Shown here in pieces: positions 8,970-64,000 of a stretch of DNA of 64,000 nt (positions within the stretch are counted from its first letter, which is position 1; each line of letters starts with the position of its first letter). The DNA lies in assembly GCA_047967505.1 (NCBI GenBank), contig CM106538.1. One strand, given 5' to 3'. This stretch comes from Dipteris shenzhenensis (taxonomy: Eukaryota). Under the pieces are notes generated by a model, which did not search any database, was not told where the DNA came from, and saw nothing but the letters and a program-made list of their open reading frames with translations. Made by a program: the position numbers and the translations under genes.

Positions 8970-9705
8970 TTGGGGGCTAGCCTTAGCAAAGGGAATCCTT
9001 CAGCACAGGCTAAGCTTTTTGCTATGACTCCAGCCAACAAGAAGCCCTGTTACACCTCCATAGCCCCAACGCCATCTCCCTATGCCTTGACCTACCACAT
9101 ATTCCAGAGTAAACTTGATCCACATGAGCAGATTTATTTCCTACAACGGAAACTTAGAGATGCAAACCTTCGCATTGCATCTTTGGAGAAGACAGTTTCA
9201 GCAATGAAAAGCAAGGGCAATGAGGGAATAATTCAAGAAGTTCTATAGCAATGCAGTACAACAACACTTGCACCACAACTTGTGAGCAAGGTATAGGAAT
9301 TGGTTACCGCTCAGCTCAAGTCTATTAAATAGGAATTCACAGCAACAGAGAATACCAAGATCAATAAGTGTGATGTGTATGAGGAGGTAAAGGATTGGAA
9401 ATAATCGGATTATACGAATAGGAGGGCTGTGCGGCGAGAACTGGACTCTGGAATGTGGAAGTATGACAACAAAGTTTGAACACCTCAAGAAGGCTATTCC
9501 GCAGATTGAATGGGATCCAGAAGATATAAATTTACAGGCAAGGATAATCTTTCAAGACAAGAAAGCAAGGAACGAAGTCCTTAGACAAACCAACAGCTGA
9601 GAGGTACTAGAATATGGATTTCAAAGAAGCTCACCCCAACTCAGCTCAAGGCAAGAAAAGCAGAATTGACAAAAGTAAAAGAAGCTCGAAAGGAAGGAAA
9701 ATGTA
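8970..9705 (+). pseudogene. LINE ORF1-like fragment (RTE-X/CR1-type ORF1 C-terminal motif)
   Basis: Coiled-coil ORF 8970-9248, then frameshifted ...KARNEVLRQT.LRGTRIWISKKLTPTQLKARKAELTKVKEARKEGK, a motif typical of L1/CR1-type ORF1 C-terminal domains. Confidence 0.65.
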
Positions 9706-9755
9706 ATGAAGGCCACTTCACAACAATAGTATTAGACTTTAGTAATGTGCTGAAT

Positions 9756-9868
9756 AGAGAGTTTGTTTGAGTATGCTTGTGCTTTCTAAGTTAGAAATGT
9801 ATTTTTGCCTCTTTGTAGAAACGATACATAAGTGTAAAGGGCCATTTAGCTATTTATGTTTTAAATAA

Positions 9869-9905
<37 letters not shown>

Positions 9906-10282
9906 TAGTTTTTTGGAAGTTTTTGTTTCTTGACTTGCTTGTTTATTTTTGCTTAGTCACCTACTTCGTTTCTTCTTTATTTCTTGTTTTCATTCTCTTT
10001 TGTTTATTTGACATATTTTAGTAAGCACTGGGTTTGCCCAAGAGACTCCGCGGGTCTTTAGAAACCCAGTATAGCTGCTTATGCTTGGGCTCTGATAACA
10101 ACATAAGTGTTGCTTTGCTTGCTAAGTATGTCTTCCTTTTGTTTTTCATAAAAGTTTTTGTTTACCTCTTTTTTCTTGTCTTTCATTTTCTCTTTTATTT
10201 TCTTTGTAGATTTTTAATCTTTAGAACAACAAAAATTCTAAATTTGTATGATTGGACTTATTCTAGTCTTACAAAGGTATAT
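9756..10282 (+). repeat. 5' pseudo-LTR of the PLE
   Basis: Near-identical to 16199-16699 from agagagtttgtttgagtatg to acaaaggtatat; internal (GA)n is longer here than in the 3' copy. Confidence 0.92.
10010..10132 (+). ncRNA. Candidate hammerhead-like ribozyme with non-canonical strand order (copy 1; core reads CUGAUAA)
   Basis: CUGGG-UU-UGCCCAAG / hairpin AGAC..GUCU / UUA-GAAA-CCCAG / CUUAUG-CUUGGGCU-CUGAUAA-CAA-CAUAAG, enclosed by stem 10010-10027/10116-10132. Confidence 0.6.
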
Positions 10283-10469
10283 TTTCCTATCACCTTAGCG
10301 GACATGCAAATTCTTTGAATTTTCGTCCAAGTGGTGATCATCTGTTCAACTACATTGTTTTATCTTACGCGGGTGCAGAAGCCCCAACAGCTAATCTTAT
10401 TCTCATTTATTCTTATTATTATTTTAACTCTTTTCTTTTTGTTTAATTTTTAATTCTCTCTCTCTCTCT

Positions 10470-13400
10470 GTCGGACTTCATCAGACTGCACAGTACAGCC
10501 CATAGATCAGGGACGTCAGTTACTGGAGCTTCTCACCTCGCACAGTATGGTCATTTATAACGGCTTGTCCAGGTGGCCACAGTCTTCCATGCCTACATTC
10601 TCTTCTGCTTCTGGGCGTGGTACTAGCATGATCGACTACATCATAGGTCCCCCGACTCTAGTCCCTTCCATCCATAGCCTTACTGTTAGCCCCTTCATGC
10701 CCTCTGCCGACCATGTACTCATCCACTTTACTTTGACTAATGTCTCCCATGACCCACCCCCCCCTCGTTATCATGACCGCCAACCCTATTACGAGGTTCA
10801 TTTCGACCACCAGTTCGATGATGTATATAGCCAGAACCTCAGCCGCCTACTCCGTCCTCATCTATTAGATGCTCTACCATCCACGCAGGACCGGTGGGAA
10901 CTTGTACATACTTCACTCGTTTCTGCCGCTCACATGTCGTTCCCTGCCACATGTCATTCGTCTAGTCCCCCACCGGTTGGTCTTGTTCCTTGCAACGGTT
11001 GGTATGACGAGGAGTGTAAGGAACTCCGCAGGAAACTTCACCTTGAGACCAAGGAGAAGTCTCCCCTCCTTGCCGAAACCAAGAGAGACTACAAGTGGTT
11101 GGTTAGGCGCAAGAAACGCCAATTTCTAGCCCGGAATGAGGAGGAGCTGAGAAGCTTGCTTTTCAGCTGTGACTCCAAGGAATTCTGGAGAAAATTCCTC
11201 CGCTCGAAGTCTCAGAGCCCCCTCACAGATCCATGGGTCTGGTTTGCATACACTTCAGCTCTATACGATGTTCCAGATCAGCCAGCCATCGATTTATCCC
11301 ATTCCCCTAGGCCAGCTTCATCTAGTCTCTTCACACCAGAGAGTGTCCGTGCAGCAGTCCACCGATTAAAGAACGGGAGAGCTAAGGATCATGATGGATT
11401 GCAAGCGGAGTATGTAATCTATGGGATTGATGCCTTAGATTTTGTTCTTTCCCATCTCTTCAATGAGTCTGTTTGTACAGGCCTACCACAGTCCTGGTTA
11501 GGCAATACCATAGTACCTATCCACAAGTCGGGGGACCCTATGGAGCCGTCGAATCACAGGACCATCATGATTGGCCACGTTATGGCCAAGATCTATGCAT
11601 CAGTTTTGGAAAGCTGTATAAATGACCATGCCGAGATGACAGGACTCAGAGCCAGAGGGCAGGCTAGATTTCGCAGGGATCATTCGACACTTGACCACAT
11701 CCTCACACTCAGGGCACTGGTAGAGGAGGCGAAGTCACGAAGGCAACGGCTTTATTGTTGCTTCGTGGACTTCAGGAAGGCATTTGACACAGTTCCGCGA
11801 TTCAGATTGTTTCAGAGGATTCGCCAGATGGGCTTCATTGGAGAGATACAGTGGGCTATCATGGCTTTGTATGAGAGGGTCACTGGTCGGGTTCGGACAC
11901 GTGAGGGGCTCTCAGAGGAGGTATGCAGCACAATTGGGGTGAAGCAGGGTTGCCCGCTCTCTCCTACTCTCTTTGGATTATATATTGATGAGCTAGAGAT
12001 GTTTATACAGATGACAGGCGGTGTGGGCTCTACTCTCTCAGGATCCTCCATTCCTATCCTCCTGTATGCGGACGATGTGGTTCTCATTTCCTCTACTGCT
12101 CAGGGCCTCCAGGCACATATTGAGGCACTCCACAGGTTTTGCCAGGATAGGGGGTTGACCGTAAACCTTGGCAAGACCAAGGTTATGGTTTTCAACACCT
12201 CTGATCGTATTTATAGCACGGATGAGTTTTGCTTCACATATGACGGACAGCCCATTGAGCTTGTTAGAGAGCACTTATTTGGGGGCAGTTTTCCGGGGAC
12301 CGGTTTTCACCATGACATATGCAGCACGAGATAGGATTAGTAAAGGGTATGCTTCGTTGGCTCATCTTGAGCGTCAGTGTTTTCAGTCCCACTTTCAGCA
12401 TCCCGATACGAAATCCTTGCTTTTTGATACATTGGTGAGACCAGCTGCGATGTATGCAGCTCCTTTCTGGGCAGGAGACCTCGGCGCTGCAGATTGGAGA
12501 CGAGTAGAGAGGTTACAGGTCATCATGTTCTCTCGGCTCATTAGGGCCAAGGCTACAGTTCCGCACGAGATCATGCTAGCAGAGTTTGGAGCTACTCCCC
12601 TTGCATTGGATGCAGCGTTTCAGTCGGTCATGTATTTGCATAGGGTTAGGGAGTTTGGAGACTCAGCAGCAGGCAGAGCTCAGTTGCCATGGTTAGCACT
12701 TGCATCTTCTATGGAGTTGGCACGATCTGGGGCCCGATACTGCTGGTACTTCAGACTCACTAGGTGGCTCACATCTCTTGGACTAGACATGGATAGACTG
12801 CCTCCCTTCCGATACAGCATAGATGCCCCTCATCTCGAGTTGACTCGCCACGAGCTTAGCCAGGTCACGAGAGCAGACTTGCTGCAGCTTCATACGTATC
12901 GCACTTGGATTTATCCCACGCAGCTTCCGACGAAGATGGCCACATATCGTGACCACTTCCTTCGGATCTCAGAGGATGGATTTGTCATTCCACCAGGCTA
13001 TACAGGTATCCACATGTCCCACTCACTGAGGATTGCCCTTGGCCAGCTTAGAGTCTCTTCGCATCAGCTCGAGATAGAGGCTGGTAGGATGCGACGCATG
13101 GAGGATGGACGGCGACCAGGCCGAGAGACCAGGATCTGCCCTTGTTGCACCATGGGAGAGGTGGAGTCAGAGGAGCACTTCGTTTGCAGATGCCCGCTAT
13201 ATTATGAGCTCAGAGGTAGATTCCACTGTCTCTTCACGGATGGCTTTGGACCTCTCTCACGAGTGATGGACTACGAGGATCAGCATTGCCTAGCTCTTTA
13301 TGTCAAGGAGGCCACTATGCTTCGACGAGACTACCTCAGAGACCATCAGCACAGACCGGAGCGTGATAGAGCCCAGCCTGATAGAGCTTAGGCACACGCT

Positions 13401-13990
13401 ATACCAGAGGACAGAGACCAGGAGGAGCACGAGGAGGTCAGAGCTCACACAGGACACATGCCTCCACCCTGTGGATGTACATATGAGATGGTTTGTAGAC
13501 ACCGCAAGATCTTGTTACATAGGGGACATACTCGTCGCTTCATCTCCAGACGATCCAGGATGATGGCAGCTTTTCGGAGGAGACTTACTCATGGAGATCT
13601 CGCCCCACTAGCCGCTCACCTCACCTTTGCTCAGATTTGTACTCTCATAGCAGGAGGCAGAGTCGATGGACAGGATTTCCAGTATTATTTTGGTTCTCAG
13701 ACTCCGTGACACCTGGACTTGTATCTTTGCATTGGCATATTGTACTCATCCCCCCATTTTGCACCCAAGGGCGGTTTCCTTGCATCTAGTTTACTTTGTA
13801 TTTAGGCTCAGATTTGACATTATGTACTTTCACTTGCATTGTATTGCGTAGCACTTAGATGATATTCGACGATGCCTCTTCTTTGTGGCACGTTGATTTT
13901 GTGCTATCTTGTATGCAGAGTTCTTGATGTCCCATGGGCCCATTTTGGCCTTTAGTGGACAATAATACACTTTCTTTCTTTCTTTCTTTC
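10470..13990 (+). mobile_element. RTE-X-like LINE, 5'-truncated (EN C-terminus, RT, CCHC domain), (TTTC)n tail
   Basis: ORF 10547-12334 (SMIDY, SADH, YCCFVDFRKAFDTV, GVKQGCPLSPTLF, LLYADD) frameshifts into 12168-13391 (QLRVSSHQLEIEAGR, CPCC..ESEEHFVCRCPLY); (TTTC)n at ~13971-13990; flanked by (TC)n on both sides. Confidence 0.93.
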
Positions 13991-14295
13991 TCTCTCTCTC
14001 TCTCTCTCTCCCTTAATTTTATTTTATTTTTAATTTTATTTCTTTAAAAAGTGTGCTTTTGCGTTTTGTTTTAGTTGCTCTCCTTGGTTTATTTCACTGT
14101 ATGACTGCTTTATTTTTTATTTGATTTGATTTGATTTTATTTATTTAATTTTTAAATCATTGGTAACTTTCCTTTTCTCTTTCTCTTTCTTTGGTGCTTC
14201 TAGGTTGATTAAGCTCTTACAGTGGCCTTGGGGCCCTGGCTAACCCTAACTGTAATCGCCAGTTTGGGGGTATATTGGCATTAGCGATACATGCT

Positions 14296-16191
14296 ATGAT
14301 GAATTCGCCTTTTGGAAACCAACAGGGCGATCTCCTGGGATGTCATCTGGCTCCTGTGACATTCCCTTGTAGTAGTAAGGGAGGCGTTACCTTGGGACGA
14401 GTAACGACTGTGCAAGCAAGCCCCCCCCTAAATACTAGTCTTGCTCCTACTAGAGTTAGGGGATATAGCAAGGGAGAAATTGCCTTGGGATGGGCAGGGA
14501 GAGTGCAAGCAAGTTCCCCAATGTTGGATCATTTGACCTCACCGAATTGGTCTTACTTTAAGGCTTTATTAGTTAGCACTCATTATACTAATAATAACAT
14601 AAGAATTCTTAATAAACTAAGACATCTTAGAAACAAGCTGCTTTAAAACTAGAAGAAGTCCCTTCGGTTAATTGCTCAAAGAAAAGTAACCATCTTTCTA
14701 AAGAAGATGAAACTCTTCTTCGAAAATTCCATAGGAATTTGGTCATTTCTTATGTGGACGAATGTTCCAATAACTTTGTTTTTATTTGCAAGAAGTTTTA
14801 CTTAGAATGTCTTTTGAGAGAAGTGAACTCGTCTGCCAAAACTTACGCCCCTGCCTTAGTTTCTCAGAAGGATTTGATCTCAAAACATCAGAGTTTTTGC
14901 AAGTCTTCTGGGTTTGTTTGCAATCCAAGCATACCTTTTCTTTGTCATGCTTGGAAGTTTCACAAAACTCCAAAAAAGCCAAGATTTATTGCAACTGCTT
15001 GTGAGACTACTTTGACGGATGTCTCTAAATGGCTAAGCTACTGCTTCAAAGCCATGTTGCCTAGTGTCCATGAACTTTGGAGGGACTTATTAAAAGAGGC
15101 AGATGTCCCCTCGAACTCAAGCTGGATTTTAAATGACTCTGTAGAGGTGATTTCTGTTGTAAAATTTTTTAATTCCTCTCGAAGCATTCAGGAAAAAGAG
15201 TCTCCTATTCTCCTTCAAACCTATGATTTTACCATGCTTTACACAAAGATTGAGTTGGAAGACCTGAAGTTTAGAATTAAAAAGCTAGTGGCTGAAGTTT
15301 TCAAGCTGAGATTTGACAAAGATAGATGCAAAGTGCTAAAAGTTGAGAAAAAAGCCTTATGCTTTGACTTTTTGTGGCTAAAAAATAAAGATCATGACAT
15401 AGATTCTGAAAAGAAAATATACACAAAGGTAGTAAGTGTAGAAGATGTTTGCTCTTGAATAGATTTTCTTTTAGATAATCTTTACATCACAATAGGTGAT
15501 TCTTTATTTCAACAAGTTATAGGAATCCCCATGGGCACTAATTGTGCCGTCTTTTTAGCAAACTTTTATCTTTTCACTTATGAATTTAAGTTTATGCATC
15601 GTCTTATTTCTATCAATACCTGCCCTATCATTTTACATCAGCTTAGTTAAGTTAGGCGTTTTATAGATGATTTATTTGTACCAGATGTTCCTAACTTTCA
15701 AGACTTTATGTACAAAGATGCTAGAGCTTTTGGAGAAGGAATCTATCCTCGTGACTCTTGTGAATTGAATTGCACTTCAATTGGGTTAGATCTTAGACTT
15801 TCTCAATCTACCATAGGATTAGAGCATAGGATTAGAGGTTGATATATACGATAAACGTGAACAACCTGAATATAGTGGTTTACACATTATAAAAATGCCT
15901 CACATTGACTCAAACATTTCTGATTTGGCAAAATATGGAGTCATTTCTTCCCAATTCCATAGATTTTCCTGCCTTTGTACAACTAAGGAGTCTTTTATCA
16001 GTCAATGTAGTAATTTGATCACTTTACTATTACACAAGAGGTATAATCCAAGGAAAATAATGAAAAAAGTTCGCACATTCTTAGATATGAAGTCTTTTAT
16101 CTATGGTGTTTCGGCCTTAGGTTTGTTTAGAATGATTGAACATAAGCTGAAAACAAAAAGCAGGGAGCTGATTAGCCCGTTTTTCTTTTAG
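14296..16191 (+). pseudogene. Penelope-like reverse transcriptase pseudogene
   Basis: VDECSNNFVFICKKFY, WKFHKTPKKPRFIA, LQTYDFTMLYTKI, QQVIGIPMGTNCAVFLANFYLFTYE (~15510-15584), VRRFIDDLF (~15651-15677), thumb MPHIDSNISDLAKYGVISSQFHRF; ORF ends right after the thumb with no C-terminal GIY-YIG; stops at 15456 and 15648 plus frameshifts. Confidence 0.88.
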
Positions 16192-16198
16192 TTTCAAA

Positions 16199-16699
16199 AG
16201 AGAGTTTGTTTGAGTATGCTTGTCCTTTCTAAGTTAGAAATGTATTTTTGCCTCTTTGTAGAAACAATACATAAGTGTAAAGGGCCATTTGCCATTTAAC
16301 TTTTCATGTTTTAAATAAGAGAGGGAGAGAGAGAGAGAGTTTCTAGTTTTTTGGAAGTTTTTGTTTCTTGACTTGCTTGTTTATTTTTGCTTAGTCACCT
16401 GCTTTTTATTTCTTGTTTTCATTCTCTTTTGTTTATTTGACGTATTTTAGTAAGCACTGGGTTTGCCCAAGAGACTCCGCGGGACTTTAGAAACCGAGTA
16501 TAGCTGCTTATGCTTGGGCACTGATGACGACATAAGTGTTGCTTTTCTTGCTAAGTATGTCTTCCTTTTGTTTTTCATAAAAGTTTTTGTTTACCTCTTT
16601 TTTCTTCTCTTTTATTTTCTTTGTAGATTTTTGATCTTTAGAACAACAAAAATTCTAAATTTGTATGATTGGACTTATTCTAGCCTTACAAAGGTATAT
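16199..16699 (+). repeat. 3' pseudo-LTR of the PLE
   Basis: Matches 9756-10282; begins just after the RT stop and runs into (TA)n at 16695-16704. Confidence 0.92.
16439..16561 (+). ncRNA. Candidate hammerhead-like ribozyme with non-canonical strand order (copy 2; intact CUGAUGA)
   Basis: CUGGG-UU(16462-63)-UGCCCAAG; UUA-GAAA(16490-93)-CCGAG; CUUAUG-CUUGGGCA-CUGAUGA(16521-27)-CGA-CAUAAG; closing stem 16439-16456/16545-16561. Confidence 0.65.
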
Positions 16700-17033: not shown

Positions 17034-20000
17034 TTATTATCATATTCTTGGCAGTGGCCAATTTATTGTAATAAGTAGGTTAGGGGCACTTTTCCCTCTA
17101 TGAGGTTTTATCTCCCTAACCATAGTCTAATCCCTAACTACGGTTAGTGGATAAGATAGGGTTTTTGTCACTTGCATTCCGTACACAAGCGTCAACTCAC
17201 CGTACCGCCGCACGTGCAAACTGCTTTCCTGCTACATTTGCTTACCAGTGTCCGTACAATAGTACAAATTTTGTACTATTGTGCAGGTGCCGTACCATCT
17301 ATCAGTCCGTACGGACTGACACTTCCGACCGTACGAGTTGCTATCTACACCGTGCTCTTTGCAGCTCTCGTCCGTACTACCTGTTGGTCACATTTGGTCT
17401 TCAGGTGAACATTGCTCCGTGCACGAACATTTTGGGAATTGGATGCTATTGAGCAAGAAATTGCTCAATTTTTGTGAGCCATTGTTAGGCTGAGTTTTTG
17501 GGGACAAATCTGTTGCATCAAGCCATTCTTTGGCTAAGATTCAATCAAATTTGTGGGTAGATTTGTGCACATTTACAAGTGTTGAGCACATTTGGGGCTT
17601 TGGCAGACAAATTGCAAATTTGGGGCTTTCAGTTAATTTGCCCTCTTTCGGTTGCAATTTCACCCCAAAATTTGGGGCTTTTGGTTTTGAACTGCAATTT
17701 CAGGCATTTTTGGGGCTTTCAGTTAATTTGCCCTCTTTTGGATGCAATTTCTCTGAAGAAATTGGGACTTTTGGCATTTGGATGCAATTTGGCAGTTGAA
17801 AGACCATTTGGGAGATTTGCAAGCAGTTTTGGACTCAATATGAGTCAATTTGCAGACTTTTGCCACCTTTTGCAGATTTTCTTTGTAGATTTTTGGGCAT
17901 TTGCAAAGCATTGTGGTGCATTTCAAGCCTTTGATAGGCTGTGACAGTATTTGTCATTGTGGGCAGATTTTCTTTGGCAGACTTTGGTTGTGCATTTTAC
18001 ATCCGAGGAAGGGATTCTACTTGTTCAGGTTGCAGTGTTTTTTTGAGTTTATCTGGCAAAAATGGCTCAACAACCATAATGAGGTTTTTGGAGTCATCAC
18101 ACAGGAGAAGTTGGATGGCACCAACTACTCCTTGTGGAGTTTTATGGTTCGCAACATCCTGGTTAGCATACATCTTTGGGATTATGTCAATGGAGATGAA
18201 GCAAGGCTAGATTCTATGGCTACACCTGTCACTCCTACAGCTGGAGGCAGGGGTAGAGGTCAAAATGCAGCACAAGTAATTGGAGCAGCTGCTGCTCCAG
18301 TGGCTCCCATAGCAGAGCAGAAAAGATGGGATTCTAGGGATGCACAAGCTTTATCTGTTATTTTTTCTTTCTGTCAAGAGGTTCATTATTCCACACCTTC
18401 GGTCATGCAAGACCTCAAAGGCATCTTGGGAGATATTAGAGAGTATGTTTGCAACAAAAAGTGATGCTAGAGTTTCCTTCCTGAAGAGAGAGCTCTCATA
18501 CGCACATGGATGAGGGAGATTCCATGAATACTTACCTCACAAAGCTTTAGGATTTGAGGGAGCAGTTGTTGAATGTTGATGAAGTTATTCCAGATTCAGA
18601 GATGATTACCACCACTCTGAATTCTCTTCTTGAGTCCTATCTTGGTTTCCACACCTCGCTGAATTTGTCATTCAGGGGGGGTAGCAATTCTCTCTCTTTT
18701 CGCGAGTTGGTAGGACTTCTGTTGCAGGAAGAGTAGACACAAAGAAATATGGCAACACGGGCTGGTGAGCATGCCATGCTTTCTAAGTTTAAGACCAAGG
18801 GAAAAGGGCAACAAAAGCAAAACGCCAATCAGCCCGCACATTAGCATAGAGTCGATTCAGGACAGCCCTCTTATAAGGCTAAGATAAAGAAAAGAAAAGG
18901 GATTGAAGTATGGCTATGTCAGATGCATCAGCTTCTCATGCACATGATGAGGGAGATGCTATAGCCAACTTTGTGGAAGAGCACTATGCCTTTTTGTCTT
19001 GCATTTCAGATGTTTCAGTGGGTTGTTCAGATACTACAACCACTATTGAGGATGATCCTTATGCTTTCTTGACTTGTAGTTATGATCTTTCAAAGGATGC
19101 ATGCTCTCTCAGTGTCAATGAGACGGTGTGTCAATGAGACACTGAATACTTGGTATTTTGATAGTGGTGCTTCCAAGCACATTACTTCTAAGAAGAGCCT
19201 ATTTGCATCTCTACATCCTCCATCTACTTAAAAGAAGGTTACTTGTGCAAAGAATTCTTCTTATTCAATGTGTGGAGTGGGGGACATCATCTTTATGTCC
19301 ATTAGTTGGACATAAAAACAGCTTTCCTTAATGGGGACTTGTAGGAAGAGGTTTATGTCAAACAATCTCTTGGATTTAAACTTTCTGGTGATGCACTTCA
19401 GGTTTGCAAGCTAAACAAAGCTTTATATGGGCTGAAACAAGCCCCCCGTGCATGGTATGCCAAGATTGACGCATTCCTGGCAAGTAAGGGGTTACATAAT
19501 AGTCCCACAGAAAGCACCTTCTACATCAAGAAGGATGGGGGGGATATTTTGGTCATCATTCTTTATGTAGATGACATGCTGCTCACAGGGTCAAATGAGG
19601 AAATAATTGCAGATTTCAAAGCTGAATTTGACATGACAGATTTGGGCATGTTAAATTTTTATCTGGGGATCCAGTTTATACAAGACAAGCGTGGCATCAT
19701 TATGTCTCAATCCAAGTATGTGCAGAAGCTCTTGGATAGATTCAACATGCATGATTGTAAGCCTATAACCACTCCCATGGAGCCGAGGCTGAAGCTTAGT
19801 ATCTATGATGCAGGTGAATCAGTGTCACACTTTACAGCTAGGCTGTTGGATGCCTCATCTATTTGTGCAATACTAGGTCCGATATTGAGTATACAGTATC
19901 TCAGGTGAGCAGGTATATGCACAGCCCAAAGACAACATATTGGCAGGCTGTAAAACGCATCTTCCGTTATTTGCAAGGCACAAAGTATTATGGATTGATG

Positions 20001-58889: not shown

Positions 58890-61800
58890 TGTTGGGGTAA
58901 AGGCACATTGCCACCCTTTAAAAGTTATGACCCCTATGACTGTCTTAATCCTAATAAAACCTTTGAGTTTGTGGTGTGGCTCAACACTTTTTACACACCC
59001 ACACTTCTTGTGTCTCCCTCTCCTAACGTTCCACCTCCTCTCTTTCCCTCACAAGTGGTATCAGAGCCACTCTCTCACTCCGGTCTACCCCTCCCTCTAC
59101 CCCTTCCTCTCCCCTTGGGCCTCGTGCCCTCAACAGCGAGCAGGGCAGCAGCAAGCCAGGGCACCCGCCGCGCGCAGCAGGTGCGCGAGCACCCATAGCT
59201 GCAGCAGCAGCTAGCTGCTACCCGCTACACGGCGGCCGCAGCCTACCAGGCGGGCGCAACCAGCGCGCAGCACTGGCCGCGCACAGCCAGTCGACCGGCT
59301 GCAAGGCAACAGCCGCGACCAGTCGTACAGCCAGCCGTACCGGCTGTACGGACGCCGCGACAGGTACAGCCAGCCGTACCGGCTGTACGGACGCGTGCAA
59401 GTACAAGGTACAGCTGTACCGACTGTACCCTCAGCCAAAATTTCGACAATTTTTTTTGGGGATCCGTGCCCTTGCAAGTACAAGGTACAGCAGGTACACT
59501 GTGCAAGCACAGCAGGTACTTGTAGGTACAGCAGGCACGGAAATTTTTTTTTGGGGGAAGAAGGAAAAAGTGAGAGCACTCTGCTCTTTTGCATGGTACT
59601 TGCAAGTACACGCAGGTACAAAAGTACAACGAGGTTTTTTCTTGATGCATTCCCGGAATTTTTTTTTCAGTTCTAGAACTGTGTGTTTGAGGTACAGCAA
59701 GTACACTCGTGTCCCTCGTGCTTGAGGTGACTAGTGCCACAGTGTGTGGTGGTTGCACAGTTATTTTGTTTCGGGAAGGTCAGATGCCTTAATTTGCAGA
59801 GGGCTTTTATGCTTTTGCTGAGTGCAAGTCTCAGTTTTTGGGTGACAATTTCATAGGGCTTTTGCCTGGAAGTGTATGCAGTGTATGCCTTGAGGCAGTG
59901 TGGAGCCAGGGTGCCCACATTGGTCTCGTTTTTGGCAGTGTATCAGTGACATTTCTTTGCAGGTCACAATTTGTGTACGACACTTTGAAAATCTCAGTTG
60001 AGCCACGCTTGGCCAGGGCGCATCGAGTTTACTCGGTCCCTAACTGTCCATCGTTGACAATGCTCAAAAGATCTTCTTTTCGGTGTTTGTACGTTGGGAT
60101 CTGTGTTGCCACTGTGCACACAGGCAGTTTATGCATTACTTTGTCAGGTGAAAGTGCCAGGAGAGCGCTGTATTTTGTATGCTACCTCAGTGTTGAGGTG
60201 TTTTTCACTTGGTACAGGTGTCAAATCAAGGGGCTTTTGCCCAGATTTTGCTTGTGAGCACTTGAGTTATTGTTTGAGAACTTCAGATGCCTTTTATCCC
60301 CTTGGTAGAAGGGTGATTGTTTGGGATTTGTCCCATACTTTGTTGCAGGTTTGTGACAGGCTGAGGTGTTTGGAGCCTTTTTCAGTGAACAAAACAGTGT
60401 ATGACAAGTGGTTTATGCATATAAAATCAGTGCAATACCTCATCTGAGGTGGGAGAAGTGTCCAGGACAGCAGTGTTTTGTGCTTCGTCAGATGATGATG
60501 CACTGATAAAACACTTGTGGAACAGCTGCAGCATTCTGTAGTTACTGTTTTATGCCTATTTGAGCACGGTACAGTGTGTCAGAAGGTACAGTGACTAGAG
60601 GGAAAATTTTCTGTTTTGCTGCAGATTTTTTGACAGTAAAAAACAGCACTATTGTGAGTGCTCCTGGCTCTTGATAGAGCAGGTTTTCTGAGAAATCAGA
60701 ATTTTATTTAGTCATTTTTTGACTTACAGGGAGTCAGTAACTTCCCTTGTCTGATATGGCATCAGGGGGAAGTGAATCCTCAATACTGAACATAAAGAAA
60801 TTGGAAGGGGCACACAATTATGCATTATGGGCAGAACAGTGTTTGAATGTACTTCTGCTAAAGAAGATTTCTAAGCCCATAAGGGTGAAGGGTGTCAAGC
60901 CATCTGGGATGGCAGATGATGAGTGGGAGGAGCTTGATTTGTCCGCAAGGGCGGCTATCATGCTTACTCTCACTGATTCTCTTGTGTTCAATGTTCAGGC
61001 AGAAAAGACCTCTTATGGCCTATGGCAGAGGCTAGAAGAGTTGTATGCCCAAAAGAGTTCAGCCAGTAAGGTTTATTGGTTGAAGAAGCTTGTCGACCTT
61101 CGCATGAAGGAAGGTACAGCTATGACCTCACACTTGAGTGAGTTCAATGCCATCTTTACACAGCTTATCGCACAGGGATTGAACCTTGATGAGGAGTTCA
61201 AGGCTACTTCTTGTTGTGTACCCTCCCTGAGAGTTGGGACACTTTCAAGACCACCCTGTCAAATTCAAATATCACTCTTATGTATGCTGATGTGGAGAGC
61301 TCTCTCCTTATGGAGGAGATGAGCAGGAAGAATAATATGGGCAGCAAGTCTTCCGATGCTTTGCAGGTACAGGAAAGAGGTAGGACTCAGTAGAAGGGGA
61401 GATCTGCTGGCAAGTCCAAATCCCGCAGTCATTCCCGTGGCAAAAAGGATATTGAATGCTTTTACTGTGGCAAGAAGGGACATGTGAAGTCCAAGTGCTT
61501 CAAGTTTATACGGGATCAGAAAGCCAAGAAGGCTGAGACAAAGGATGCAGGCAGTGGAAGCAAAGGCAAAGGCAAGGCCAAGGCAGATGACTTGGATGCA
61601 GTGAATGTTGCAGCAGAGGACAGTGACAGTGACAGACATGATGTATTATGTTCTTCTGCTGTAATTGCACATACATTGGTTGTTGATGGCCACGACATGC
61701 ACACCTGGCTCTTGGATTCAGGTGCTTCTGTTCATGTTACGCCTCATAGGGAGTGGTTTACTTCCTACACAGGTACTCATGGAGTTGTTCACCTTGGGAA

Positions 61801-64000
61801 CAACTATGAATGTCAGATTGCAGGGATTGGCAGTATACAGATAGTATTCCCTGACGGACGCATATTTATGCTTGATGGTGTTCGCCATGTGCCACAAATC
61901 AAGAAAAATCTGATTAGCACTGGCTTGTTGGATGACAATGGTTATCACACCACATTTGGGGATTCCAAATGGGTAATTACTGATGGCCAGGTTGTAGTGG
62001 CTGAGGGTTATAAGAGTGATACCTTGTACCCTCTTTATGTTTCCAGTGTAGGTAATCATGTTGTTGCCATAACCGAGCTGCCAAAGGTTTCATTGTGGCA
62101 TAGCCGGTTGGGACACATGTCCGTTAAAGGAATGCAAGAACTGTCACGTTTGGGTTATCTGCCGTCTCTTTCATTTTCAGATTTGCCTACTTGTGATCAT
62201 TGCATTTTTGGAAAGCATTCTATGACTCCTCATAAGAGGAGAACTCCCTAGAATAGAGCACCGCTTGATCTAGTGCACACTGATTTGTGTGAGATGCCAC
62301 AGCTATCACTAGGGGGTGCAAAGTATTTCATTACTTTTATTGATGATGCCACATGCAAAGTGTGGGTCTATTTCTTGAAGCATAAGAGCGATGCCTTAGA
62401 TGCTTTCAAGAAGTTTGTCGCTCAGGTTGAGAATCGGATAGGACGCAGGCTGAAATGCCTCAGATCTGATAATGGGGGTGAGTATGTGTCACATACTTTT
62501 GTACAGTTATGCGAAGCTAAGGGCATTAAACAGGAACTCACAGCCCCTCATAATGCATCTCAAAATGGTGTGAGTGAGCGGATGAATCGAACTATTCAGG
62601 AGAAAGTTCGATGTATGTTGTCTTATGCTGCATTGCCCCATGGCTTTTGGGCAGAAGCCGTGCAAACAGCAGTTCACCTAATTAACAGGTCGCCGAACAA
62701 GGCTTTGGAGTTGAAAGTGCCAGAGGAGGTGTGGTCTGGCAAGCCACCTTCATATAAGCACTTACGTGTGTTTGGCTGCGAGTGCTTTGCTCATGTACGC
62801 AAAGAACTGCGCACCAAACTGGAGCCAAAGTCTTTCAGATGCATCTTCATGGGTTACGGTGACGAAGGTGAAATGGGGTACCGGTTATGGGATCCTGTCA
62901 AACGGAAGATTATACGCAGCAATGACGTCATCTTTAAAGAGGATTGTGTACACAGAGAACCCGTGCAACCTGCGGAATACAGGAGGGTTGTCTATGATGA
63001 TGTCGGACAGCAAAGAATGCCCATTAATATGCAGCAGCAGGCTGCTGTAAATAACCCTGTTCAAGAGGGTATACAGGCTGAAAATCAGCCAGACAATTTT
63101 GCCAATGATGCACCACTGGATATGCCAGCAAATGGTGCTGTAGAACAGCCAAATATGGTGGTACAGCCACCCGTCATGCATGACGAACAGGCTAGACAGC
63201 AGCCTAATACGGAACATTTTGTTAGGAGGAGCACGCGTGTACAACGGCCTCCTGACAGGTTTGTTCCAGGAGCCAATAATGTGGCTGATTTTATCATGCT
63301 GACAGATTGTGGTGAGCCTTCCAGCTTCAGGGAAGCTATGGGAAGAACAGAGAAAAGGAAGTGGGAGAAAGCCATGCAGTCAGAAATGGACTCCCTACTT
63401 CAAAATGATACATGGGACTTGGTGCAGCTACCTGTAGGCAGAAAGGTTTTGCTGTGCAAGTGGGTTTACAAAGTCAAAGTGGATTCAAATGCTTTACCGA
63501 GGTATAAGGCCAGATTGGTTGCCAAGGGATTTAAGCAGGAGAAGGGCATTGACTTTGATGAGATCTTTTCCCCCGTAGTCAAGATGACTACTTTGAGAGC
63601 AGTGTTAGCTCTTGTTGCTCATGAGGACATGGATTTATGTCAGATGGATGTGAAGACTGCTTTTCTTCACGGAGATCTCCATGATGAGATCTACATGAGT
63701 CAGCCAGAGGGATATGCTGTTAAAGGGAAAGAGCAGATTGTGTGTAAGCTCAAGAGGAGCTTGTATGGACTCAAGCAGGCGCCAAGAGAATGGTACAAGA
63801 AGTTTGATGCCTTCATGCAGTCCCAAGGGTATCATAGGTGTGAGACCGATCACTGCTTGTACACCAAACGGGCAAAGGATGGCAGTTTGATGCTACTCAT
63901 TCTATATGTGGATGACATGCTGATTGCCAGCAAATCTCAGCAGGAGATTAGTGCTTTGAAGAAGCAACTGCATAAGTCTTTTGACATGAAAGACACGGGT
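58890..64000 (+). mobile_element. Ty1/copia element, largely intact, runs off the window end
   Basis: 5' LTR 58890-59053 (TG..CA); PBS-iMet tggtatcagagcc 59056-59068; ~1.7-kb leader; gag from ATG 60756 (CFYCGKKGHVKSKC), protease WLLDSGAS, LWHSRLGH, integrase (LVHTDLC, RSDNGGEY), RT (KARLVAKGF, MDVKTAFLHG, YVDDML); one frameshift (~61205) and TAG stops at 61391 and 62249. Confidence 0.96.

Follow-up and report, generated by a model that had tools for sequence, protein, structure and literature searches.

Can a ribozyme whose conserved strands follow one another in reverse order be a regular part of a retrotransposon, and what is left of it once the element has decayed? The question is raised by a motif of 123 positions that occurs twice in the window, i.e. 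the whole 64-kb stretch of DNA analysed here, each time with hammerhead-like strands and with lesions of its own. The first-pass annotation had described it as a hammerhead of reversed strand order, and this order turns out to be a published one: Eckert, Friedrich, Weinberg & Weinberg (NAR 2023) defined the blocks S, G and C and described natural type-SGC hammerheads, which, according to the passages on their activity, cleave at the predicted site and in cis (PMC10085705). Non-circular permutations of ribozymes were first shown in that year, and the relevant passages of the same paper trace them to metatranscriptome RNAs and to five DNA sequences from soil, none of them tied to any host biology (PMC10085705).

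We consider it likely that positions 10010–10132 are one of two mutated copies of such a non-circularly permuted type-SGC hammerhead, residing in a pseudo-LTR (pLTR) of a Penelope-like element (PLE). The type-SGC class itself has been known since 2023; what appears to be new is its presence in a plant-type nuclear genome, its tie to PLEs and its four-way-junction variant. If correct, this reading would place type-SGC in a defined mobile element, at the very position where PLEs usually carry their hammerheads, and would provide a natural variant for testing, with a four-way junction, an extra hairpin and a minimal stem II.

A Penelope-like element with a doubled 3′ UTR

Both motif copies lie in direct repeats of about 0.5 kb each that are spaced 6429 nt apart (Table 1). 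The element's ORF ends 4–5 nt upstream of the start of the 3′ repeat, and loose ends of Logan contigs accumulate at 10280–10282, marking the 3′ terminus of the family; the repeat is therefore the 3′ UTR of the element, present twice. Such a doubled 3′ UTR is the pseudo-LTR arrangement of PLEs, and hammerheads are typical of PLE pLTRs, as described in the sections of Craig et al. 2021 that deal with these elements (PMC8557442). Motif and RT ORF share one strand (+).

The coding remnant of the element was recognised by tblastn with the protein P0001, whose residues 72–467 match the window at 64% identity and whose residues 463–580 match at 61%. P0001 contains GTKF and DKC (GxKF- and DKx-like), GIPMG and FVDD motifs, and its comparison with Pfam returned no RT match. 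Among named proteins, the nearest to P0001 is a hypothetical one from the fern Ceratopteris richardii (71% identity), and more distant relatives of 900–1000 aa combine PF00078 with PF01541 (GIY-YIG). The RT at 14652–16179 differs from that of the LINE nested in the element, which shows a weak Exo_endo_phos_2 match besides RVT_1; this LINE is also GC-richer and makes up most of the 6.4-kb repeat spacing.

Among the minor features of the pLTRs are a (GA)n microsatellite of unequal length (9872–9903 versus 16325–16339) and indels of 9–12 nt at 9983–9991 and 10183–10194. The window is largely transposon sequence, with Copia-type fragments (gag, RVT_2 and integrase-related domains) at 17889–19908 and 60741–62251 and several more LINE RT fragments. 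A Pfam scan of 25 of the 49 window ORFs of at least 130 aa, plus three shorter ORFs, returned transposon domains as its only matches. The first-pass annotation had supposed a host pre-mRNA on the same strand as the element, whose cutting by intact ribozymes might have favoured their inactivation; none of the scanned ORFs had a non-transposon Pfam domain that would point to such a host gene.

Table 1. Features of the element and of the hammerhead-like motif (positions in the window)
Feature	Position	Strand	Basis
5′ pLTR, copy of the element's 3′ UTR	9753..10282	+	direct repeat of 16196–16699
Copy 1 of the type-SGC hammerhead-like motif, G8 to A	10010..10132	+	base-by-base pair check
Outer stem P0, 5′ strand	10010..10027	+	pairs with 10116–10132; 16/16 listed pairs standard in copy 1; also in MFE fold
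Block S: stem III 5′ strand CUGGGU and H17 = U	10028..10034	+	6/6 paired with 10064–10069
Stem I 5′ strand	10035..10042	+	pairs with 10084–10091; 7/8 standard in copy 1, 8/8 in copy 2
Hairpin P (AGAC/GUCU) between stem I and stem II strands	10043..10057	+	4/4 pairs in copy 1
Block G: stem II 3′ strand UUA, GAAA (10061–10064), stem III 3′ strand	10058..10069	+	pair check
Hairpin P2, GCUUAUG/CAUAAGU, 7 bp (10077–10083 with 10102–10108)	10077..10108	+	18-nt loop = block C
Block C: stem I 3′ strand 10084–10091, core CUGAUAA 10092–10098, stem II 5′ strand 10099–10101	10084..10101	+	
Nested non-LTR (LINE-type) insertion inside the element, outside the ribozyme	10454..13391	+	RVT_1 E 2.4e-29
Remnant of the element's RT ORF, frame break near 15824	14652..16179	+	tblastn of P0001
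3′ pLTR	16196..16699	+	direct repeat of 9753–10282
Copy 2 of the motif, core CUGAUGA intact	16439..16561	+	one broken pair each in stem III, hairpin P and P0

Strand order and helices of the motif

Blocks S, G and C succeed one another in this order on one strand, both in the two window copies and in the metagenome relatives described below. Hammerhead types I, II and III have the opposite cyclic order; as a consequence, each of the three stems of the motif crosses the other two. A seven-helix model comprises 44 pairs, of which copy 1 has 42 in standard form and copy 2 has 40. Seven of the 123 positions distinguish the copies (10013, 10055, 10067, 10091, 10097, 10100 and 10117); elsewhere in the repeat, the rate of differences is visibly lower.

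A base-by-base check bears out the complementary lesions that the first-pass annotation had reported. Copy 1 has a perfect stem III (CUGGGU/ACCCAG, 6/6 pairs, compared with 5/6 in copy 2) and a perfect AGAC/GUCU hairpin (4/4), together with a core damaged to CUGAUAA by a change of G8 to A at 10097 and a U.U at the base of stem I (10035–10091). Copy 2 is its mirror image: it has CUGAUGA and a U-A pair at the base of stem I; its stem III is interrupted by G x G, its hairpin by A x A and its outer stem by C x U. The type-SGC core—CUGAnGA, GAAA, A15.1-U16.1 and a position 17 other than G—is present in copy 2 and in the family state reconstructed below; copy 1 departs from it by its CUGAUAA. By analogy with the ribozymes that the type-SGC passages report as validated, the cleavage site of copy 1 is predicted at 10034/10035 (PMC10085705).

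Stem II consists of only two pairs beside a 10.1/11.1 mismatch, which is C.A in the window and A.A in the metagenome relatives. Stems I and II are linked by the 15–16-nt hairpin P (15 nt in the window), and stacking on this hairpin may lengthen stem II. In the model, no unpaired bases separate helices I, P, II and P2, which form a gap-free four-way junction; here, P would be stacked on stem II and P2 on stem I. The loop of hairpin P is a palindrome that reads CCGCGG in the window (10047–10053) and UUCCGGAA in the metagenome relatives (L002:3810–3819), and the presence of loop palindromes in both families suggests kissing-loop dimerisation.

Ancestral state and decay of the two copies

Logan contigs from four runs, covering four other organisms (A–D), were mapped to 9700–10400 at a likeness of at least 80% and served to read the state of the family. 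Position 10091 is A in 43 of these contigs, with at most a small share of the depth differing, and 10097 is G in 30. At 10100, 22 contigs of organisms A–C have G and organism D has A; at 10013, G is found in nine contigs. Positions 10055, 10067 and 10117 have no variant among the variant rows listed for the contigs of the four organisms, and the paired state of copy 1 appears to be the family state at these three sites. The family state at the listed sites is CUGAUGA with a U-A pair at the base of stem I, and stem III and the hairpin appear intact. The intact core that the annotation had postulated for the family consensus is indeed what the contigs of four organisms contain.

Measured against this state, copy 1 carries four changes, of which three are G to A (two at CpG), and copy 2 has acquired three, all transversions. 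The A at 10091 and the G at 10097 support the proposal, also made in the first-pass annotation, that the two copies decayed independently from an intact ancestor. A further claim of that annotation, namely that some differences between the copies preserve pairing, holds as a description: at both 10013 and 10100, the A-U pair of copy 1 corresponds to G.U in the other copy. As evidence it carries no weight, since both changes are CG to CA opposite U, which cannot unpair and are thus uninformative on selection. With regard to activity, copy 1 is probably dead, given that a G8 mutation abolished the activity of a PLE hammerhead in the experiments described in the relevant part of PMC11167929, and copy 2 would be impaired.

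One contig of organism B, with a depth of 752, lacks 6 nt of the P2 5′ strand (10077–10082) and has C for G at 10109. The modelled fourth helix cannot form in this abundant subfamily, which counts against the ribozyme model. As to loose ends, one contig each from runs X1 (10035) and X5 (10036) starts at the predicted site, with unrelated sequence upstream; these contigs could be copies made from cleaved RNA, which we take as a hint only. Further positions among the loose ends listed are 10045, 10046 and 10055.

A second family with the same architecture

A protein-guided scan of metagenome contigs yielded 80 loci with relatives at 45–60% protein identity, for which blastn found no nucleotide similarity to the window pLTR. 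GAAAC is followed 42–54 nt on by CUGANGA, 150–258 nt past the ORF match, in 25 of the 45 loci in which the ORF end is present. Sixteen loci without that pattern were inspected: 12 retain the block, with GAAA or CUGAUGA altered by one or two point mutations, one has block C only, two have blocks S and G only, and in one the block is absent.

The layout in this family starts with CUGAGU, C at the cleavage position, UUCCC, a hairpin with the loop UUCCGGAA, and GCA-GAAA-CUCAG; it continues with a linker, CCCACUG [UAGGGAG-CUGAUGA-AGU] CAGUGGG and a 10-bp outer stem. Block order, helices and position in the 3′ UTR are those of the window family, the site being GUC as opposed to GUU in the window, and P2 measures 7 bp in both. 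The strict SGC descriptor has 18 matches in the 80 loci, all of them at the 3′-UTR site and on the ORF strand, and none elsewhere in the loci (2 x 467,629 nt). A descriptor for canonical hammerheads gave no recurrent 3′-UTR match in the metagenome loci.

When the window and metagenome families are compared, 33 helix levels are paired in both, of which 12 are identical, two differ on a single side and 19 on both. The outer stem, where the register is arbitrary, accounts for ten of the 19, P2 for another four (of its seven levels), and stems I, II and III for one each. In alignment A3, which comprises 31 metagenome sequences, 94.1% of 1306 pair cells are standard, compared with 30–56% when the partners are slid by 1–3 columns. 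Covariation within the metagenome family does not exceed that of column shuffles, the observed values being reached by 344 of 500 shuffles for percent paired, by 147 of 500 for both-side-changed pairs and by 299 of 500 for the covariation score. This null result is expected if copies decay after insertion, and it means that real covariation rests on two lineages. The least variable part of the metagenome alignment is the core, whose columns contain 3.6% non-consensus letters as against 8.1% in the linkers, and the core is intact in 19 of 30 distinct rows.

Under default filters, a covariance model derived from A3 had no match in the window. With the filters off, copy 1 ranked first of 42 matches in the window at 10.8 bits (E 0.3, not significant alone), and copy 2 was not among them. 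Among 20 partial matches in the metagenome loci, none was a 5′-truncated copy beginning at the cleavage site. Viral contigs contained no relative of alignment A2 and one weak, unrelated locus for P0044, and the genome contigs searched with P0005 gave no match.

Folding and proposed mechanism

Copy 1 folds with an MFE of −46.0 kcal/mol (z −5.25), which none of 200 shuffles equals; the corresponding value for copy 2 is −36.7 kcal/mol (z −1.86), with 10 of 200 shuffles as good. The MFE folds favour nested alternatives in which GAAA is paired with the UUU of the cleavage site and hairpin P is extended over the stem II strand. Two further pairs can be added at the base of hairpin P in both families (10041–10059; L002:3802–3828), at the cost of stem II and the top of stem I. 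This extended form, preferred by the MFE folds, may be an inactive alternative conformer.

We picture the intact family RNA as two hairpin modules enclosed by the outer stem. In module A, stem III would close a loop in which the cleavage-site nucleotide is followed by the 5′ strand of stem I, hairpin P, the 3′ strand of stem II and GAA. Module B would be hairpin P2, whose 17–18-nt loop presents CUGAUGA between the 3′ strand of stem I and the 5′ strand of stem II. On docking, the two loops would form stems I and II and thereby an ordinary hammerhead core beneath the gap-free four-way junction of I, P, II and P2. The RNA would then cut itself after GUU, or after GUC in the relatives, and if a read-through or tandem transcript were cut in both of its pLTRs, a unit-length RNA would be set free (10035–16463, 6429 nt including the nested LINE).

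Weighing the alternatives

Is the motif a ribozyme at all? The bleakest answer would be that CUGAUGA-like and GAAA strings happen to be juxtaposed, with fortuitous complementarity, inside a repeat. In keeping with this, Rfam yields no hammerhead, whether in the window at gathering scores, around either copy at E<=10, or in an intact metagenome relative; neither window copy passes the strict SGC descriptor, and choosing the better allele of two copies is a biased procedure. The Rfam result, however, is what a non-circular permutation leads one to expect: descriptor and covariance-model searches for ordinary hammerheads cannot see the S-G-C topology. A relaxed type-SGC descriptor matches the 64-kb window, on both strands, solely at the two pLTR sites, with 44 matches in 20 Mb of Markov-2 random sequence, in which the strict descriptor matches just once; the 19-mer of block S occurs twice in the window against an expectation of 0.02. 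Moreover, independent contigs settle the ancestral state, and a second family has the same architecture in the same place. A chance origin of the motif is unlikely on these numbers, and with both families in view we regard it as hardly credible. A more serious contender is a conserved, structured 3′-UTR element with a different function, for instance in recognition by the RT for priming, the hammerhead-like core being an inactive relic or a coincidence. MFE folding indeed returns a nested skeleton of the outer stem plus two or three hairpins, stem II is marginal, and the parts of PMC11167929 devoted to these points report that reverse transcription of PLEs begins inside the 3′ region and that hammerhead mutants of the PLE Poseidon are without effect on insertion in vitro. 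Against it, 11 core letters, A15.1-U16.1 and a position 17 other than G are kept in two families that share no nucleotide similarity, stems I and III, which are meaningful only across two hairpins, are kept as well, and the four nematode consensuses discussed in the last section show, by eye, a sister permutation with canonical stems II of 4–5 bp. We therefore see this explanation as improbable, if well above mere coincidence.

Alternatively, the hammerhead might form only between two RNAs, or between the two pLTRs of one transcript, by way of the hairpin P palindrome, so that one copy supplies the block C that docks on blocks S and G of its partner. Such an arrangement would be a variant of the type-SGC reading rather than exclusive of it, and it resembles the minimal PLE hammerheads that cleave as dimers. 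Dimer-dependent PLE hammerheads are already in the literature, reportedly in work by Lunse and colleagues from 2017; the loop palindromes of both families fit in well, and pairing in trans would lift the pseudoknot constraint. Yet the diverged copy at L071:2815–3030 has a hairpin P without a palindrome, CpG decay alters the palindrome in many copies, and the type-SGC ribozymes for which cleavage is described act in cis (PMC10085705). Obligatory pairing in trans is, in our view, rather unlikely, albeit the least so of the three alternatives.

Relation to published hammerhead classes

The reading as a type-SGC hammerhead, to which we return here, invites a comparison with the examples HRIMA-1 and its variants. 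The shared features are the S-G-C order, the core nucleotides, stems I and III together with a putative stem II, a predicted cleavage site after the stem III 5′ strand, and a pseudoknotted topology unmatched by ordinary hammerhead models (PMC10085705). According to the structural part of that paper, type-SGC needs four helices, namely stems I, II and III plus a helix that encloses block C and joins the far sides of stems I and II (PMC10085705); P2 corresponds to this fourth helix. Differences are equally apparent. The published linker is typically 3 nt long and stem II has about 5 bp in the example rows, whereas the window motif has a hairpin as linker and a 2-bp stem II. The published sequences come from metatranscriptome contigs associated with hairpin ribozymes, the molecule being given as 'RNA' in the variant row, whereas the window motif belongs to a retrotransposon in nuclear DNA; and their cleavage is proven, whereas that of the window motif is a prediction (PMC10085705).

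Type-CSG, which belongs to the same reverse cyclic class, is represented in the published set by five DNA sequences from soil whose contigs carry no partner ribozyme (PMC10085705). It resembles the window motif in having a stem-III hairpin with blocks S and G and a hairpin that presents block C, but the two modules stand in the opposite order. With the canonical type I hammerheads of PLEs, as portrayed in the pertinent parts of PMC4209133 and PMC8557442, the motif shares its position in the pLTR, its sense orientation and a presumed role in the processing of tandem or read-through RNA. The canonical ones have the order C-G-S, a minimal stem III and no pseudoknots and are found by Rfam-type models or RNAmotif (PMC4209133, PMC8557442), unlike the window motif. 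A canonical hammerhead of type I, II or III was rejected as an interpretation of the latter because of the wrong strand order and the missing Rfam match.

Plant LTR retrozymes offer another parallel in a plant retroelement; they are said, in work by Cervera et al. from 2016, to carry one hammerhead per terminal repeat and to give rise to unit-length RNA by double cleavage. The window element likewise has a hammerhead-like motif in each terminal repeat, but retrozymes are small and non-autonomous, with type III hammerheads and true LTRs, whereas the PLE described here combines an RT ORF and pLTRs with a permuted ribozyme. A full-text literature search, with subscription journals and bioRxiv supplements outside its scope, found no link between permuted hammerheads and PLEs, and the term 'type-SGC' was not found in the full-text literature beyond Eckert et al. 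2023 (PMC10085705).

N-terminal-endonuclease elements and a possible sister permutation in nematodes

To which branch of PLEs does the element belong? In the metagenome relative L078, an ORF with a GIY-YIG domain (PF01541; 23.1 bits at a cut-off of 22.6) lies upstream of the RT part, with a GCDC motif in between, and pLTRs of about 530–560 nt flank the unit in both L078 and L076. To judge by its domain order, L078 has the N-terminal-endonuclease layout of Naiad/Chlamys. The window element has pLTRs and RT remnants and no endonuclease remnant was found in it, so that its own clade assignment rests on relatives.

Craig et al. 2021, in the passages concerned, describe Naiad/Chlamys as being without canonical hammerheads, yet with cases labelled 'HHR_core' or 'HHR_half_core' (PMC8557442). 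In this regard, it is instructive to look at nematode Naiad elements. The 3′ regions of the consensus sequences of Naiad-1_Nbra, Naiad-2_Nbra, Naiad-3_Nbra and Naiad_Hcon, as given in the supplement, each contain, by eye, a complete type-CSG hammerhead (PMC8557442). Block C comes first, within an enclosing helix of 8–12 bp, and is followed by the stem III 5′ strand, GUC, a 5-nt stem I strand, a canonical stem II strand of 4–5 bp, GAAA and the stem III 3′ strand. About 420 nt are displayed for three other 3′ ends (those of the records preceding Naiad_Smim, Naiad-4_Dst and Naiad_Esco), and no CSG motif was seen in these stretches.

It is possible, and we suggest it tentatively, that the whole Naiad/Chlamys branch carries reverse-order hammerheads made of two kissing hairpin modules, with SGC in land plants and CSG in nematodes, and that the two forms interconvert by tandem pLTR duplication. 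This might explain the puzzle of why N-terminal-endonuclease PLEs 'lack canonical HHR' and nevertheless show 'half cores' in the published account (PMC8557442), and it would mean that the orphan type-CSG sequences from soil reported in 2023 could derive from such elements. Among the nematode consensuses, the fifth pair of stem I varies between families, being G-C, C-G or A-U by eye. The metadata comments on the three Nbra Naiad families in the same source read, respectively, blank, 'HHR_core' and 'HHR_half_core' (PMC8557442).
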